Origin: a virus | Lineage: Duplodnaviria; Caudoviricetes | DNA: 29,435 bases | Virus record (IMG/VR): IMGVR_UViG_3300023314_000007 | Location: 1 to 29,435 of that record | Strand: one strand, 5' to 3' | In this document: in pieces, positions 3,273 to 26,620 of the stretch | Position numbering within the stretch: position 1 is the stretch's first letter | How the letters are laid out: every line of letters starts with the position of its first letter | Translations under genes and position numbers: made by a program | The notes under the pieces: model-generated | Told to the model about the DNA's origin: nothing | Database searches by the model: none | The model's input: the letters and a program-made list of their open reading frames with translations, nothing else

Positions 3273-3955
3273 TGTTTAAGTCTAAACCTTTTAGAATTGT
3301 CGCTTACATCCTTGCTTCAACCCTGTTGGTGTTATCACTAACTTTCTCATTTATCACACTTTCACCTGTAGATGTACTCCAGAACTGGAGCCAGCAAACG
3401 GTTGAACAGCCGGCAAACGGGCAACTACCAACCTTCCAAGAAGGCGATACGGTAAAGATCAACACAACATCAAACAAGATCCGCGACATTGACGGAGAAC
3501 GAACGGTCTATATCGACTGTATCCAGGATGGAATTGAAAATCGATACAATGTGTCCACTGCTTCAGTCGGACGGGAACTAGGACAGAAAACAAGCGAAAT
3601 CTCCTACATCATCCCTTACGGAATTTCAAATCTTCCACAGACTTGTCACTTTAGTACATTCATTAACTATAATGTATATGGCATACGGGATCACGAAGAA
3701 TCAGTAAAGACAAATGACTTCATAGTTATGCGGCGCAATCCGACACAAACAGTAGTAACAAACAACACAACAACAGAAACACGAATCACAGAGGGCGCTA
3801 ACGCGGATCAATCAAACAGTCCGTCACCGCAAACTCCGGCAACACCAACAGTTCAAACAAACGACGAACAGAATAATAGCACAGAGACTAAGCAGGAAAC
3901 AGTGGTACAAGCAAAAGTATGTATCCCATTCACCGGCATTTGTCTCTTAAACTAG
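3272..3955 (+). CDS. Membrane-anchored/secreted lysis-cassette protein of unknown function
   Basis: N-terminal TM/signal segment, beta-rich middle with a Cys pair, T/P/N-rich linker, C-terminal CIPFTGIC. Confidence 0.6.
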   Translation: MFKSKPFRIVAYILASTLLVLSLTFSFITLSPVDVLQNWSQQTVEQPANGQLPTFQEGDTVKINTTSNKIRDIDGERTVYIDCIQDGIENRYNVSTASVGRELGQKTSEISYIIPYGISNLPQTCHFSTFINYNVYGIRDHEESVKTNDFIVMRRNPTQTVVTNNTTTETRITEGANADQSNSPSPQTPATPTVQTNDEQNNSTETKQETVVQAKVCIPFTGICLLN

Positions 3956-3967
3956 AGGAACAAAATC

Positions 3968-4777
3968 ATGGGAAAATGGATACAATTAATAGATGCAAAT
4001 ATGACAGTCGGCTACCAAGGTGGCTGGTGTCTTAAATACGTTCAAGATGCATATGGAACGGATCACCCATTCCCTACAGCTACGGCTGCTTGGAACTCGA
4101 GACAGGGTAATCACCCTAACGAAGTTCCTCCTATGGGAATCACCGTCCCTGTTTACTTCTCACTAGTAGGTGAACCAGCAGGACATGTCGCGATCCGATT
4201 AGATGATGGCTATGTAGCTTCATCAAGTAATCCAGGCTATCACCCTCGTCCGTTCTTTCACCCTAACCTCGATCACCTCATGCGATACTACGGAGCATAC
4301 CGCCCTGTTTACCTCGGCTGGAGTGAATACGTTGGTACTCGTAAAGTCGTTGGATGGGAAGACTACCGTGACGAATCTATCGGTGGAGAGGTTCCATTCG
4401 ATCGTCAGACTCAAGAAGATCCTACGTTACCCCTAGGTGAAACCAAGATTGCACAATCTGGTGTTACCGGTAACAACAGTAAGACTTACCGTATCCGTAC
4501 TATTGATGGACGCGAAGTCTCAAGAGAGCTTATTGGTGAGAACAACACCTCTCCAGTTGCAGAAATTACGTTGATCGGTACCTATGTGGAACCAGTAGTA
4601 GTTCCTGAACCAGAACCAGAAACTCCAAACCCTACCCCTGAAGACCCTGTGGTAGTAGCACCTCCAGTTAAGAGCGAGAATAACATCGGCGCTCAACTGA
4701 TCCGCGTATTGAAAGCTATCTGGGGACGTATCCTCGTTGCTATCAATAAGTATAATGAAGAACACAAAAAGGTCTGA
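3968..4777 (+). CDS. Endolysin: CHAP/NlpC-like amidase plus G5 domain, Pro-rich linker and amphipathic tail
   Basis: GWCLKYVQDAY (catalytic Cys) and GHVAI (His). G5-like VPFDRQTQEDPTLPLGETKIAQSGVTG...PVAEITLIGT. RBS GAGGA. Confidence 0.8.
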   Translation: MGKWIQLIDANMTVGYQGGWCLKYVQDAYGTDHPFPTATAAWNSRQGNHPNEVPPMGITVPVYFSLVGEPAGHVAIRLDDGYVASSSNPGYHPRPFFHPNLDHLMRYYGAYRPVYLGWSEYVGTRKVVGWEDYRDESIGGEVPFDRQTQEDPTLPLGETKIAQSGVTGNNSKTYRIRTIDGREVSRELIGENNTSPVAEITLIGTYVEPVVVPEPEPETPNPTPEDPVVVAPPVKSENNIGAQLIRVLKAIWGRILVAINKYNEEHKKV

Positions 4778-7079: not shown

Positions 7080-7089
7080 TCTTAGATTA

Positions 7090-7241
7090 AATATACAATG
7101 TTGATAATAACTGCCCCTGTGACTAAAAGGTGTTATATAGGGGCAGTTTCGCTTTCTTGGCAGGGGACTAACATTCTCGAAGAGGTTAGCGGCTTACCTT
7201 CAGCTGTCACAGCCGTACCGTTATTATCAACATTCTATATT
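7090..7241. ncRNA. Putative structured RNA module closed by a 22-bp stem
   Basis: 7090-7111 pairs with 7220-7241 (1 mismatch) and encloses three hairpins. Strand uncertain; flanking transcription is minus. Confidence 0.55.
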
Positions 7242-7300
7242 CAAGGTGGCGGTGAAGTCCAGGAGAAAGACGACACCGCCAATAGGGGGTATAAGGGGCA

Positions 7301-7555
7301 CAGTTCTTACGAACTGCGAAGAGCAACCAATACACGTTAATCGGCTTTCCACCTTCAGGAAATCACCCCTGGGTAATAACCATGTGACTCGCAACACCTG
7401 TATCTTATAAACCGGCTACCCGTGATTAAATCGGACCGAGGGTCGTTTTTAGCTGACCAAATCATTGGGAAGTCTGCCTATAGTTCAGATCCTTCCAGCC
7501 TTGATATTTACTCCGCTGTGTGTCAAGTTGCTCTTCGCAAACCATAAGGTTCGCG
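7301..7555 (-). ncRNA. Putative structured RNA module (~250 nt)
   Basis: 13-bp inverted repeat 7315-7327/7527-7539. Flanking hairpins include CAGTTC-GUAA-GAACTG (GNRA loop on minus). G-U pairs favour minus. Confidence 0.55.
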
Positions 7556-7688
7556 GTTGTAGTCAGACGAGTACGGTGGGCCACCTGTGCTCTATATCGT
7601 CCAACGACTATACTGCCGGATCTCTATAGATACTCCACCTCGATGAATAACGGTCTTCTAGAAAGCACCGCACTAATCTGACTACAAC
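7556..7688 (-). ncRNA. Putative structured RNA module (~130 nt)
   Basis: 12-bp stem 7556-7567/7677-7688, continued by GUGCGGUG/CACCGUAC (G-U on minus). Confidence 0.55.
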
Positions 7689-7700
7689 TATTTTAAGGTA

Positions 7701-8300
7701 CTAATGCCTTGCTAATATCTCATAAGCGTACATTATTCGTTGAGATTGCATACACTTGCCACATCTCTCAAACTTGTTCTGGAACGCGATAGTCGCAGAC
7801 TCTACATTGTCATACGCTAGTACGGCATTTTTAGCTGCTATCTCTGTTCCATTTAGTTCCTCCATAAGATAATTAAGTTGAACATTTACGTTCAAGTAAT
7901 CACCTTTGGCGACTAAATTACTCCTACGGGCACCGATCCACTGGGCTAGTCCAAGACCACCCGGTACATCTGATGTGTTAAATCCGTGCTCCTGTTGTAG
8001 ATTCCCCATGATACCAGCAGTCTGATTTCGGGTGAATCCTTGGGAGATCAGAAAATTCCAAGCAATGCTTTCGTTTTCTGATGGAGTTGTTATTGATTGT
8101 GTAGGTGCTGGTTGCTGTTCTACTACGGGAGCCGGTTCCGGTAATACCTCTTTCGGGGTGTCCATTATCGGCTCAACTTTCTTTTCTACTTGTTGAGTAG
8201 TCACCTGTTTTGTTTCGGCGACTGGTGGTTCTTCTTTTTCTACCGGGAGGGCTAAGGTACTCAGTACCAAGGCCACCACGATTATTAAAATCTTAATCAC
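7701..8300 (-). CDS. Secreted phage-tail-type lysozyme
   Basis: Signal peptide, P/E/T linker, then AWNFLISQGFTRNQTAGIMGNLQQEH..GLAQW...QLNYLMEEL...FERC (Phage_lysozyme2-like). Confidence 0.85.
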   Translation of the reverse strand: MIKILIIVVALVLSTLALPVEKEEPPVAETKQVTTQQVEKKVEPIMDTPKEVLPEPAPVVEQQPAPTQSITTPSENESIAWNFLISQGFTRNQTAGIMGNLQQEHGFNTSDVPGGLGLAQWIGARRSNLVAKGDYLNVNVQLNYLMEELNGTEIAAKNAVLAYDNVESATIAFQNKFERCGKCMQSQRIMYAYEILARH

Positions 8301-8306
8301 TATCTC

Positions 8307-8335
8307 AATGTAGCATACTCAGGATCAAAAGTCAA
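8307..8335 (-). promoter_or_regulatory. Repeated leftward phage promoter, copy 1
   Basis: TTGACT-17 bp-TACATT with TGC extended -10. Confidence 0.7.
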
Positions 8336-8338
8336 TAC

Positions 8339-8680
8339 TTATTTGAGTTTTGATGTTGCGGCTTTGACACCAAGCATCTGAGCGAGAAGGATGTGATCTA
8401 CTGCGACACTATTCCAGTGTTCGCGGATACCACCATTAGCATATTCACCATCGTCTTCTACTTCAGCGAGTGTATCGATAAATGCAGCAGCTGCTCGTTT
8501 AATTCGATCTACTTTAGGATTATCACTAGGATTGAAATCGATAGTCACAATTTTCATTCCGATTGACAATTCCTCTTCTTTTTTCTTATCCTCTGCAGCA
8601 GCTGTTGCTGTTTTAGTTTGAGGCAATTTATTTGATTCTATACACATATCCCTTTTCTCTCTTTCTATTGAAAATTTCAA
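8339..8680 (-). CDS. Acb2/Tad1-like helical-hairpin protein (candidate nucleotide-signal sponge); true start probably further downstream
   Basis: G..V..DFNPS....VDRIKRAAAAFID...AQMLGVKAAT pattern. Confidence 0.55.
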   Translation of the reverse strand: MKFSIEREKRDMCIESNKLPQTKTATAAAEDKKKEEELSIGMKIVTIDFNPSDNPKVDRIKRAAAAFIDTLAEVEDDGEYANGGIREHWNSVAVDHILLAQMLGVKAATSKLK

Positions 8681-15201: not shown

Positions 15202-15227
15202 TTATACCCTTTCTTATTTACCTTCTC

Positions 15228-15256
15228 AATATAGCACACTTGCCATAAAAAGTCAA
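15228..15256 (-). promoter_or_regulatory. Repeated leftward phage promoter, copy 2
   Basis: TTGACT-17 bp-TATATT, AAGTGTGC before -10. Confidence 0.8.
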
Positions 15257-15264
15257 TAGGTTTT

Positions 15265-15504
15265 TTACTGATTAGTTTGTACTTCTCTGTTATCCACAAT
15301 CGGTACTCCGAGTTCCATGCCGGTCTGCTGCGGTAACTTCGCGCGTCTGTATGCATCGTAATCCAGATCCGCAAAGGTGAATACTTCGTCTGCTAACTTG
15401 ATAGACTTATGATCCGGGATGAAAAAGAATAACTTGGCAAGATAGATAGATTGCTCTTCCGTGATGTCAAGTATTCTTCCGTCTTTTAAATAGACCCGAC
15501 CCAT
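15265..15504 (-). CDS. Hypothetical protein
   Basis: MGRVYLKDGRILDITEEQSIYL; resembles the N-terminus of 17552-18040. Confidence 0.6.
   Translation of the reverse strand: MGRVYLKDGRILDITEEQSIYLAKLFFFIPDHKSIKLADEVFTFADLDYDAYRRAKLPQQTGMELGVPIVDNREVQTNQ
15290..15298 (+). promoter_or_regulatory. Consensus DnaA box
   Basis: TTATCCACA, ~35 bp upstream of promoter copy 2, inside a CDS. Confidence 0.4.
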
Positions 15505-16614: not shown

Positions 16615-16940
16615 TATGCTAGATACTTCTCCTCCAACATACCTTCATCTTTGAGATCACGGAGCAGTCCTAATTCAAGTACCGGTCCCATCTTCTCGTC
16701 AAATTCAGCCATAGTTTTAAAGTTAAAACTGTTCCAAGAATCATTCGCGCGACTATACATGATAGTAGCCTCCATTCTTATGTCAGCGAAGTCTAGAATA
16801 TCCTTATTCTGAGCGAGAGCTTCAGAGGTCAGATTTCTAATTCTCGTCTTTACGGCTGAAGATGCACTCCACACCGTTTTTCCAGTTGAATTCAAAATAA
16901 ACTTAACTGTAATAGGTACTCGTATTGTTTGTCCAGCCAC
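16614..16940 (-). CDS. Hypothetical protein
   Basis: GTG 16940 with AAAGGAG RBS. Confidence 0.65.
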   Translation of the reverse strand: MAGQTIRVPITVKFILNSTGKTVWSASSAVKTRIRNLTSEALAQNKDILDFADIRMEATIMYSRANDSWNSFNFKTMAEFDEKMGPVLELGLLRDLKDEGMLEEKYLA

Positions 16941-17110
16941 TATTCTTTCTCCTTTAGTATTTGATCTATTGCCAATTCGTCTAACCAAGATGTAACATTA
17001 TCGTCATTTGATAGTAGGTAGTCCCTAGGACTTCCAGACTTCACAGCCTGTATAGTTCCGAATCCTGGAACTTCTGTACCTATATCGTAAAATCCATGCT
17101 CGTTCTTCAT
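16940..17110 (-). CDS. Hypothetical protein
   Basis: ATG 17110 after AGGAAAGG; first CDS after the RNA cluster. Confidence 0.6.
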   Translation of the reverse strand: MKNEHGFYDIGTEVPGFGTIQAVKSGSPRDYLLSNDDNVTSWLDELAIDQILKEKE

Positions 17111-17139
17111 CCCTATACCTTTCCTTATGAACACTTCGA

Positions 17140-17288
17140 GGGGGGTGTCTTACTCCGGATCAAGGATCGCGTATCAGCAATGCACTCTTCCACGTCCAGC
17201 ACCGGCAGAAAACCGTAGAACACCACCAGCCACTATGTCTTTGGCTGCGCGGCCTCAGACGGGTCTAGTGAGATTCGTGCATCCCCCC
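17140..17288 (-). ncRNA. Putative multi-branched RNA module (~150 nt)
   Basis: G6/C6 closing stem, AUGCAC/GUGCAU inner stem, three hairpins with G-U pairs on minus. Confidence 0.5.
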
Positions 17289-17316
17289 AGAATTACTCAT
17301 AAATTGTTAAGTAAAC

Positions 17317-17420
17317 AGTCAAGCGATCAGCGGATGGAGTTTCGCTAACTCCCCGGTGGGCACTCGCCTTCCGTGTAGGCTATCGCGTTACAGCGTATTT
17401 TTACAGCTGACCGCATGACT
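17317..17420 (-). ncRNA. Putative cloverleaf-like RNA module (~104 nt)
   Basis: AGUCA-U-GCGGUCAGC / GCUGAUCGC-U-UGACU closing stem plus three short hairpins. Confidence 0.55.
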
Positions 17421-17437
17421 ATCTAATTTGCTAAGTC

Positions 17438-17506
17438 GATAAGGTACCGGGCGGCCCGACAGGTGGCTATCAATGTGTATTGATTCACCCGGTACTAATC
17501 CTTATC
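17438..17506 (-). ncRNA. Putative three-way-junction RNA (~69 nt) at the transcript 5' end
   Basis: GAUAAGG/CCUUAUC and UACCGGGUG/CGCCCGGUA stems, two inner hairpins. Confidence 0.5.
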
Positions 17507-17514
17507 TATCATTC

Positions 17515-17543
17515 AATATAGCACACTTGCTTCAAAAAGTCAA
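17515..17543 (-). promoter_or_regulatory. Repeated leftward phage promoter, copy 3
   Basis: TTGACT-17 bp-TATATT, near-identical to copy 2. Confidence 0.8.
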
Positions 17544-17551
17544 TGACATTT

Positions 17552-18040
17552 TTACATTGAATCTGTGTATTTCCACAGCCTAGACGCTTCATCCTCTGTA
17601 CATAAATCTATGTCAGTAGGACGGTCGCCATTAATCTCTTCAACTCTGCGAAACGCGATAGTAACATTGCCAGTATCAGCGCGATCCAACGTATAATAGC
17701 TGGGATGATTAGCATAGTATTTCTCGTATTCCTTACTACTGATAACTTTTTTATACCAGTTCGTTACAACATAACCCTCGGTATCAATGAGTGGCCCGGT
17801 CTTTAATTCTTCTGCACGTCCGGCATACAAGGCCTTGACTTTATCTTCTACTCGTTTTGTAGTAGGTTCTACGTTATCAATAGCGTCATATCTATAGGCT
17901 ATCCCATTCAAAGTGAATCGATCACCACGAATAACAGGGTCGGTTGTTAGCTGCTCATTCAGGTATTTACCTTGAGCCTCACTAACAAGCAACTCCTGCT
18001 CGTTATAGTCTTTCCATTTTATACGCCAATAATACGACAC
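17552..18040 (-). CDS. Hypothetical protein
   Basis: 162 aa, GTG start with AAGGA RBS. Confidence 0.7.
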   Translation of the reverse strand: MSYYWRIKWKDYNEQELLVSEAQGKYLNEQLTTDPVIRGDRFTLNGIAYRYDAIDNVEPTTKRVEDKVKALYAGRAEELKTGPLIDTEGYVVTNWYKKVISSKEYEKYYANHPSYYTLDRADTGNVTIAFRRVEEINGDRPTDIDLCTEDEASRLWKYTDSM

Positions 18041-20521: not shown

Positions 20522-20565
20522 TCCTTGCTCTCTTTTCATTCATGTAGTACATTTCCATACTATTC

Positions 20566-20594
20566 ATCATAGCACACTCGCTCTTAAAAGTCAA
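20566..20594 (-). promoter_or_regulatory. Repeated leftward phage promoter, copy 4
   Basis: TTGACT-17 bp-TATGAT, AGTGTGC before -10. Confidence 0.8.
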
Positions 20595-20603
20595 TAACAA
20601 TAT

Positions 20604-24937: not shown

Positions 24938-25101
24938 TGTGATACTTCCTCTAGGTGTTCTATCGCGCTTTTAATGTCTTCGTCAATATTAGCCTCATAA
25001 ATAGCCTTAACCACTTCAAGGATACGGCTAGTGCTAAAGCCTGTTTCTTTACTAGCCTGTAAAGCTAGTTTCTGCTCTTCTGCTCCCCATGTTATAATCA
25101 T
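24934..25101 (-). CDS. 55-aa hypothetical protein (not in the ORF track)
   Basis: AAGGGGG RBS, ATGA overlap. Confidence 0.6.
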   Translation of the reverse strand: MIITWGAEEQKLALQASKETGFSTSRILEVVKAIYEANIDEDIKSAIEHLEEVSQ

Positions 25102-25116
25102 GTTACCCCCTTATTA

Positions 25117-25236
25117 TTAGATATTAGGTTGCCATGCCATGAGTAGCATTAAAGCTATCAATCCTGCAACCTCTAGCGTTGTCTTAAACTTGTTAATCAG
25201 GCTCTTCTTATTCGTTTTATTGTGTTTATATTGCAT
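25117..25236 (-). CDS. 39-aa basic/hydrophobic peptide
   Basis: MQYKHNKTNKKSLINKFKTTLEVAGLIALMLLMAWQPNI*. Confidence 0.45.
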   Translation of the reverse strand: MQYKHNKTNKKSLINKFKTTLEVAGLIALMLLMAWQPNI

Positions 25237-25241
25237 AATAG

Positions 25242-25358
25242 TTAATTAAATGTAACGATTGTTAATGGATATGGATCTAGGTCCACTGGTGGCACTACTT
25301 CGATTCGTGGTGTCGCCTTTGTTGCTATATACTGTACTTTAATCTTTTTTGATGCCAT
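25242..25358 (-). CDS. 38-aa first early peptide
   Basis: Strong GGAGGT RBS; MASKKIKVQYIATKATPRIEVVPPVDLDPYPLTIVTFN*. Confidence 0.55.
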   Translation of the reverse strand: MASKKIKVQYIATKATPRIEVVPPVDLDPYPLTIVTFN

Positions 25359-25462
25359 TTCTTTTTACCTCCAGAAATTAGCTTTTGTTTATTATAAGCG
25401 TTGGATCTGGTGAGGCTTAACGGGTTATGCTCTCGGTTGATCGCTTACTTGCTTATGTATTA

Positions 25463-25491
25463 ATAATAGCACATCATCATTAATAATACAA
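25463..25491 (-). promoter_or_regulatory. Leftward early promoter
   Basis: TTGTAT-17 bp-TATTAT with TGTGC before -10; DnaA box TGTGGATAA at 25518-25526. Confidence 0.6.
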
Positions 25492-25550
25492 TACTTTTAT
25501 GATAGTTTATATAATACTGTGGATAACTCAGTTAATGGCCTTATTTTCAT

Positions 25551-26080
25551 ATCCACCCCTGTTAGTGCTGTCAGAGGGGTATTAAAAACGAGCCATTCTA
25601 AGGCTCTCTAAGGCCCTTCTGGATCAATAGTTGAGTGTATGCCCGTCTATTCTATAGCGCCCATACACAAGCTTAGAATCGGCCGGAAGAAAAAGAAAGG
25701 GCTGTTAGTGATAAGGGTAAAGGTGTCATTATTACATAGGGAAGTATACAACTATTATCATTACTCTTATTATTCTTATTGTAGGGTTATTATTATAGCT
25801 CTATTTATTGTTTATGTGTAAGGTATTAACATGCCTCCGTGTGCTTACGCTTGTCTTTTGATTAATGCAACCGCTCATCCACCCCTGTTATCTTACCTTT
25901 TACGACATAAGCCTTATTGTTAATAGATGGATGTGTACTCATCTTTAGCCTAAAAGCTTAATGTCGCACAATATACGCTACCCCTGTTACAGTACACCCC
26001 TATCCCTTTAAGTTTAATGTTAATTGTTTAATGTTTTAATTTTTATTTTAATTGTTTAATTGTTTATTTAACTATTTAAT
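25551..26080. repeat. Direct repeats (ATCC)ACCCCTGTTA x3 plus T-rich TTAAT-repeat tract; candidate origin or packaging/terminus region
   Basis: Copies at 25551-25564, 25877-25890 and 25980-25989; AT tract ~26007-26080. Confidence 0.55.
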
Positions 26081-26228
26081 GGTTAGGGGGATCATCAGAC
26101 CCCTATAGCACCCGACTGGGGAAGATTAAATATGCTGGGGTGGCGATATTAATCCCTCCCATGTTGCGTCCATAAAATATTTTACAGTTAAAGGCTTACT
26201 ATACCACAAAAAATTTTTATTAAAAGAC

Positions 26229-26258
26229 TTGACAAATCGAATACAGTCGTGTTATCCT
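26229..26258 (+). promoter_or_regulatory. Putative rightward promoter
   Basis: TTGACA-18 bp-TATCCT with TG extended -10 and A/T-tract UP element. Confidence 0.5.
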
Positions 26259-26562
26259 TAGTATACAGTCCAGGCAAGGCAGAAGCAGCCACTAGAGGAC
26301 TCTAAGATATCTAGTATACAAGCTTATAACGGGTGATCTCGCCTATAATGAGATGCAGTGACGGAAATTGATTCCCACTAAAGAGTAATCGTACCTTAAT
26401 AAATAATTAAATAGAATCGATCGTCTTCGACGATAGTTGTATTGAATTCATTGTTAGACAGTTTCGAGGATAATAGCTAATTTCTTGAACTGCCGACGTT
26501 AGAGGTTGCCTAGTAGCGAAGCGCTGCAAATTAGGGAGCCTTTTTAGAATACCCTTTGACCA

Positions 26563-26591
26563 TTGAAACTGTATATACCTTCTGCTATTAT
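26563..26591 (+). promoter_or_regulatory. Rightward promoter for the packaging operon
   Basis: TTGAAA-17 bp-TATTAT with TGC extended -10. Confidence 0.6.
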
Positions 26592-26620
26592 TACATCATA
26601 TTAATAAGCAAAGGAACAGC

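Follow-up and report, generated by a model that had tools for sequence, protein, structure and literature searches.

The closest described precedent for the locus analysed here is the tRNA transcription unit of phage T4, which also holds RNAC and RNAD (species 1 and 2), annotated as non-tRNA structured RNAs of 119-139 nt and described as small stable RNAs of unknown function (PMC3014915, PMC9697503). GOLLD and ROOL are described as phage RNAs encoded near tRNA islands, and the linker of GOLLD sometimes carries tRNAs (PMC12286853). In bacterial pre-rRNA, the boxA element is described as recruiting the Nus complex, and RNase III cuts the leader-trailer helices to release the pre-rRNAs (PMC10250234). 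The Y RNAs YrlA and YrlB are described as having a GNCGAAN(0-1)G motif near the 5′ end, a D/T-arm domain and a long terminal helix that is interrupted by internal loops and formed by the two ends of the RNA, with one precursor carrying several RNAs (PMC4201824).

Here, we focus on a promoter-led cassette of three RNA modules, M1, M2 and M3, in a tailed phage. The window, that is, the whole stretch of 29,435 nucleotides that was analysed (IMG/VR record IMGVR_UViG_3300023314_000007), is a fragment classed as linear and 61% complete, and its genes include a terminase, RusA, a single-strand binding protein, exonucleases, a thioredoxin reductase, a glutaredoxin, a G5-domain protein and a lysozyme-like protein. 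Two complete relatives are 48-49 kb in length and have direct terminal repeats. The product of window positions 8339-8680 (minus strand) has a weak match to the Acb2/Tad1 hairpin domain (E 3e-4, below the curated cut-off) and is possibly an anti-defence sponge protein. An AT-rich and nearly gene-free region of 1.5 kb (25100-26620), with short tandem repeats at ~26007-26062, separates divergent early and packaging genes and is likely to be an origin or terminal region.

The layout of the cassette is not unprecedented, given T4 RNAC and RNAD and the occurrence of GOLLD and ROOL near tRNA arrays. M1-M3 resemble RNAC and RNAD in setting: the same site in one relative (L017) holds M1, M3 and a tRNA-Met, and the window's own array is without a tRNA. 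RNAC has a T-arm, the 3′ end of RNAD runs into CCA and neither has a long terminal duplex, whereas M1-M3 are the opposite on each count; the comparison is one of features and not of sequence, and it makes M1-M3 candidate members of this group only. GOLLD and ROOL, likewise structured phage RNAs of unknown function by tRNA islands, are single large conserved RNAs (many GOLLD exceed 800 nt), in contrast to the small, unrelated and freely exchanged modules of the cassette, and the Rfam GOLLD and ROOL models have no match in the cassette region or in the relatives' arrays. The likeness to Y RNAs lies in the long helix that joins the 5′ and 3′ ends and is broken by internal loops. M1-M3 were nevertheless rejected as Y RNAs, as they have no GNCGAAN(0-1)G motif or T-arm; one copy of M1 (in L017) matches the motif and the other three do not. 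Ro60/TROVE is absent from 201 Saccharibacteria-class genomes and from the two complete close relatives, and was found in one of five phage records, the distant G005 only, in a search where the window itself counts as a fragment. This more distant relative, of 85 kb, has a TROVE/Ro60 protein and 24 tRNAs (G005:C1:61906-62559; L030, L031). In common with bacterial pre-rRNA, the arrays have a promoter, a boxA-like motif, cores held in long end-to-end helices and, in a relative, tRNAs in the same row. Unlike pre-rRNA, the cassette cores have no rRNA-like sequence and the helix sequences match host helices no better than chance.

Three closed modules behind a phage promoter

The cassette and its surroundings comprise the following features, all on the minus strand.

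17515..17543, minus strand: sigma70-type phage promoter, TTGACT-17-TATATT with an extended -10 TG (from sequence)
17438..17506, minus strand: M1, a three-way-junction RNA (z -3.9; homologues in L010, L011 and L017)
17312..17425, minus strand: M2, a multiway junction with three well-predicted hairpins on a 19-bp closing helix (z -4.0)
17302..17312, minus strand: boxA-like motif between M2 and M3 (pattern and host-leader matrix)
17124..17303, minus strand: M3 (homologues at L011 11100-11274 and L017 4408-4582; covariation)
17277..17282, minus strand: 5′ strand of a predicted 6-bp pseudoknot in M3 (invariant in 3/3 copies; complementary to 17185-17180)
17180..17185, minus strand: loop strand of the predicted M3 pseudoknot (complementarity)
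16940..17126, minus strand: purine-rich ribosome-binding region and first downstream CDS (ATG 17110, 56 aa; sequence and ORF list), outside the RNA cassette

The near-consensus promoter reported in a preliminary description of this DNA is real as a sequence feature and is one of four near-identical copies in the window (8291-8344, 15212-15265, 17499-17552 and 20562-20599), the other three of which run straight into CDSs. Judged from its sequence, transcription would start near 17508. The first likely start codon is ATG 17110, ~400 nt after the -10 box as first described; the 56-aa CDS that it opens has no family and no PHROG match, and the ORF list contains no minus-strand ORF of more than 33 codons inside the cassette region. 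No terminator was found 3′ of the array, which therefore probably forms the 5′ portion of a transcript that continues into CDSs, and the earlier idea of a 'dedicated' non-coding RNA unit is not supported.

A promoter-led cassette of three closed modules is confirmed. At the limits first proposed for them the modules fold as described, with energies of -27.6 kcal/mol for M1 (z -3.9), -42.3 kcal/mol for M2 (z -4.0) and -56.6 kcal/mol for M3 (z only -1.6). Single-sequence z-scores are weak when taken alone; a loose cut is passed by 62 of 489 sliding windows of the contig, and because such scores are common there they do not settle the structure. The AT-rich linkers, first taken for mere spacers, turn out for the most part to be the paired feet of closing helices, and M2 therefore extends to 17312-17425 and M3 to 17124-17303. 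Each core is thus surrounded by a long helix of the pre-rRNA type, of 16, 19 and 26 bp for M1, M2 and M3. The energies of these closing duplexes lie within the lowest 1% of 1409 control segments, and that of M2 (-29.1 kcal/mol) is lower than all 1409.

M1 is built of an invariant terminal helix, a purine-led bulge of 5-6 nt, a covarying helix P2 and two small hairpins. M2 had been called cloverleaf-like; it is a multiway junction without T-loop or CCA, and hence not a tRNA cloverleaf. M3 consists of an AU-rich foot helix, invariant internal loops, a G6/C6 helix (17288-17283 paired with 17145-17140) and a three-way junction with one variable and one conserved arm.

The decisive evidence for the folds is covariation and not the z-scores. 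Two-sided changes are present in 10 of the 40 pairs of M3 (three sequences; 99.2% of cells paired) and in 5 of the 24 pairs of M1 (four sequences), four of the latter in the 7-bp P2; since the alignments are small, with 3-4 sequences per family, and partly fitted to structure, these counts are support and not probabilities. None of 500 shuffles scores as high as M3, and slid controls pair at 30-53%. Four of the seven pairs in the AU-rich foot covary, which indicates that the helix is kept and not its letters. Helices 3 and 4 of M1, the two hairpins, are ~75% paired in the model alignment and fold individually in three of the four copies, and hardly any loop letters of this module are conserved. 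The folds of M1 and M3 are shown by these compensatory changes, and we are highly confident that the cassette is a real structured non-coding RNA.

Homologues of M1 occur in three relatives, where it is the first module in each, and those of M3 in two. M2 has no homologue in relatives or elsewhere, and its model, built from the window and an identical record, is hence a single-sequence one. Covariance models of M1, M2 and M3 recover their own members only among 23 phage sources and have no match in 151 Saccharibacteria-class genomes each; blastn against GenBank phages gives no match, and a wider protein alignment yields no new viral loci. One new match to the M3 loop pattern was dropped, as it falls within coding sequence and disagrees with the M3 model.

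The preliminary description held that the G-U pairs work only on the minus strand. The region as a whole favours that strand (z -4.0 on the minus strand vs -1.1 on the plus strand). M2 at its first limits does not, each strand giving -42.3, and a preference for the minus strand emerges once the extended foot is included (-47.9 vs -43.1). The sense strand is the more stable in 27 of 29 modules. This bias, the G-U pairs and the covarying inner helices count against a reading of the modules as inverted-repeat cassettes or selfish insertions that act at the DNA level behind a strong promoter and have no RNA function. Such elements would fit the inverted repeats that bound the modules and the way in which modules abut closely and move as units, but there is a tRNA in the row and neither a target duplication nor a recombinase gene was seen near the site; we consider this origin very improbable.

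Six unpaired bases past the G6 helix of M3 are invariant and complementary to six invariant bases of an apical loop, which suggests a 6-bp pseudoknot; this predicted pairing never varies among the copies and shows no covariation. Five letters are common to the predicted helix and the core of the host 16S leader helix, a match that was given no weight as it was spotted afterwards and the picking of sites favoured that word. The otherwise variable helices of M3 enclose invariant single-stranded stretches and the predicted pseudoknot, which could mark the cores as new ribozymes or small-molecule-binding RNAs (for example, sponges of host alarm signals), with the M3 pseudoknot as the pocket, and the weak Acb2/Tad1-like protein match of the phage, although below the curated cut-off, would agree with this. 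However, Rfam up to E 5 yields neither a ribozyme nor a riboswitch, a hammerhead core is absent, and M1 is almost devoid of conserved loop letters, which makes this reading improbable.

Searches for known classes were negative: Rfam, up to E 5, and ARAGORN, for which this had been expected, have no match in the cassette region, and a known cis-regulatory family is likewise absent in Rfam up to E 5. Candidate identities that were rejected include tRNA or tmRNA (no T-loop, no 3′ CCA, no ARAGORN or Rfam match), known self-cleaving ribozymes (no Rfam match, no hammerhead core in M1-M3), a riboswitch or attenuator (no Rfam aptamer, no terminator, no constant downstream gene) and a retron (no reverse transcriptase gene in five phage records, four of them complete). 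The modules were also rejected as mimics of rRNA fragments (p 0.08-0.99 against two 16S and two 23S sequences). An nhmmer search for rRNA likeness, an idea taken from inspecting some sister modules by eye, gave no match, and chained-word scores against rRNA reached p 0.04 or less in 3 of 116 comparisons, none of them M1-M3. Comparison of M1-M3 with host tmRNA and RNase P RNA gave no significant match, and antisense pairing to the phage's own genes was absent at E 0.05. The searchable supplements of the Fremin and Kyrpides 2023 catalogue (PMC10690425) contain no match, and overlap with other parts of the catalogue is possible. The cassette is a set of two covarying folds absent from Rfam (M1 and M3) and a third without homologue support (M2), in a setting of known type.

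Gain, loss and exchange of modules among relatives

Scans with the 162-aa protein encoded upstream of the cassette gave ten loci, which collapse to the window and five distinct relatives. The protein itself belongs to no family and matches no fold at E 0.001, where only weak rows for WYL activators appear, and is not tied to the array because it is also present where the site is empty (L018). The promoter is kept at the same site in 5/5 relatives. It is followed by seven closed modules in L011, five in L010, eight in L017 and two large ones in L015; in L018 there is no array, and the promoter leads straight to a ribosome-binding site and CDS. A tRNA-Met and a CCA-ended tRNA-like unit are among the modules of L017, in keeping with the layout like a phage tRNA array that had been proposed. 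Neighbouring modules in the relatives are separated by 0-2 nt in 12 of 18 gaps, and both the last module and the first downstream gene vary between relatives. Whole modules have been gained, lost and exchanged.

Helix and core are exchangeable separately. The modules at L011 10873 and L017 3924 have the same closing helix (foot) and different cores, as do window 7080-7250 and L021, and the core of window 7555-7689 recurs in the L017 array (3924-4058) inside another helix.

The window has a second array at 7080-7700 (minus strand), where the lysozyme-like and exonuclease genes are separated by at least three helix-closed modules. We take this to be the 'cluster 1' to which the cassette had been likened in architecture, with no evident sequence similarity. 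The likeness does not extend to the promoter, as no copy stands directly in front and the nearest precedes the lysozyme-like gene; similarity is indeed absent within the window, but one core of this array lies at the cassette site in L017. Relatives carry other cargo at the second site, including tRNAs (L024 and L025), and in the second-site arrays of more distant relatives tRNAs are accompanied by a tmRNA match of only 82 nt. This match, at L024 9434-9515, is above the Rfam gathering score and without the coding part. Similar CCA-ended units were seen by eye at L023 ~1860-1940 and L025 ~3650-3730, and a T-loop-containing core lies at L021 9853-9992 within the same closing helix as in the window's second array.

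Other sister modules also stand out. A conserved module (L011 10987-11098, L017 4060-4175) has an unpaired anti-Shine-Dalgarno-like word in an internal loop and is a possible mimic of the 16S 3′ end. A 165-nt module common to L011 (10690-10854) and L010 (10754-10921), with a loop pairing that by eye appears to covary, is a good candidate for a new pseudoknotted RNA family. L015 1322-1526, likened by eye to the 16S head region, was rejected, being not above shuffles (p 0.13 and 0.56 against two 16S sequences).

This variability bears on two further readings. The array lies between the promoter and the first CDS, and M1 starts with a Shine-Dalgarno-like word, as might be expected of a cis-acting riboswitch or attenuator leader of the downstream genes. 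Such a leader is nonetheless a very remote prospect, given an array with no terminator, downstream genes and last modules that vary among relatives, an empty site in L018 and a core that is also found at a second locus. Alternatively, the array might stay uncut and serve as one modular scaffold or as an RNA that forms oligomers, much like GOLLD and ROOL, which are described as phage RNAs near tRNA islands, GOLLD sometimes with tRNAs (PMC12286853); some loops are self-complementary. We think this quite unlikely, since the arrays have no conserved order or core, their modules (70-240 nt) are lost, moved and swapped, and none matches GOLLD or ROOL in Rfam.

A boxA-like motif and the host

The host is probably one of the ultra-small Saccharibacteria, a call made because of an exonuclease gene in one metagenome-assembled genome (MAG), weak G5-domain matches and the leader motif described below. 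In the alignment of the phage exonuclease the only genome match falls in a single Saccharibacteria MAG (one locus from eight candidate stretches), without further synteny. NusB is encoded in 5/5 and RNase III in 99/101 Saccharibacteria-class genomes. Five genomes of this class (G007, G013, G016, G023 and G027) all have tmRNA and RNase P RNA, and a small SRP RNA match was found in 0/5. In G023, an isolated 74-nt match to positions 1082-1155 of the 23S model (G023:C5:66767-66840; L072) lies away from the rRNA operon and may be an rRNA-mimicking ribosomal-protein leader.

Six gaps between modules are at least 8 nt long, and a boxA-like motif lies in five of them, the exception being the M1-M2 gap of the window. 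A strict pattern, drawn from the arrays after the fact, has a single match in each of the five arrays, and the rest of these five records contains just two more. With a matrix derived from twelve Saccharibacteria 16S leader sites, which were chosen semi-manually at the foot of the leader helix, the best array site ranks 18/58,846 in the window and 22/96,680, 1/98,104, 1/3,112 and 2/23,598 in relatives. By count the phage consensus motif is not enriched in Saccharibacteria-class genomes, with 6 exact matches in 81 genomes vs 8 for the reversed control; two of the six sit in 16S leaders of Saccharibacteria, at the leader position. A similar word is found in L028 between a promoter and a CCA-ended tRNA-like gene.

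The host leader motif may be a boxA, to judge from its position and likeness. The copy in the window is degenerate, lacks one T relative to the consensus form of L010 and L017, sits after M2 and not near the +1, and departs from GYTCTTTAANA, the boxA consensus described for gamma-proteobacteria (PMC5725501). The motif pairs with the trailer in host leaders, whereas in the cassette it is mostly unpaired and lies mid-array. We put the chance that it is a working boxA, which would recruit NusB/NusE and help the long helices to form, slightly short of even. The idea that the closing helices copy host rRNA leader helices was rejected, as they share 14/25 5-mers vs 13.0 in shuffles (p 0.43). Our literature search found nothing on boxA in phage tRNA operons or on such arrays in Saccharibacteria phages; the testable link to rRNA-style processing thus appears to be new, none having been found in print.

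A pre-rRNA-like model for biogenesis and role

We propose, tentatively and with a little less than half of our confidence, that the cassette is a stable-RNA operon built like pre-rRNA, in which a single precursor carries modules that are cut by RNase III and act in trans, with decoys as the likeliest role. The host polymerase would transcribe the row as one precursor, perhaps with Nus help, and each closing helix would form once its module is finished. Host RNase III would then free cores of ~70-150 nt and leave the rest of the transcript as mRNA. By analogy with pre-rRNA, release of the cores from their closing helices by RNase III is the step we favour, with reasonable rather than strong confidence.

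Cleavage could instead serve the message. The modules would then process or stabilise the mRNA of the downstream operon, as do the RNase III sites in the early transcript of T7, where cleavage at R1.1 is described as maturing and protecting the mRNA (PMC8708148). Long duplexes are RNase III-type substrates, there is no terminator past the array, and the M3 foot ends in three bases that also belong to a Shine-Dalgarno-like word. A single site would do for this purpose, yet the arrays hold 2-8 different complex cores with invariant loops; one relative has no array at all, and a tRNA is found among the modules. We accordingly rate processing for the sake of the mRNA as a minor alternative, of low probability.

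In the stable-RNA operon proposed here, the freed cores would be trans-acting, and their likeliest role is that of decoys for RNA-binding proteins of the host. Our guess, held with slightly less conviction than the operon model as a whole, is that they decoy or compete with host proteins, for example defence nucleases and translation or processing factors, and are not guides, enzymes or scaffolds. It is made because the sister arrays hold tRNAs, CCA-ended look-alikes, the 82-nt tmRNA match and anti-Shine-Dalgarno-like words. No decoy target can be named for M1-M3 because they have no likeness to host rRNA, tmRNA or RNase P RNA. Fast gain and loss of modules is what counter-defence cargo would be expected to show.

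On a broader and more speculative view, which we think unlikely to be right in full, Saccharibacteria phages would run a miniature rRNA-style line, in which boxA and leader-trailer helices carry swappable RNA cargoes that form a counter-defence or takeover library. The cargoes in such a line would be tRNAs, look-alikes of the tmRNA end and of the anti-Shine-Dalgarno, and new folds such as M1-M3.

The function of the small stable RNAs of phage tRNA clusters, such as T4 RNAC and RNAD, is still unknown, and this locus offers two new folds together with a testable model of biogenesis. Sister phages with 0, 2, 3, 5, 7 or 8 modules at one site are a natural experiment. If the model is true, phages carry exchangeable RNA accessory 'genes' as they do small anti-defence proteins, and new RNA folds could be sought in cassettes of this type.
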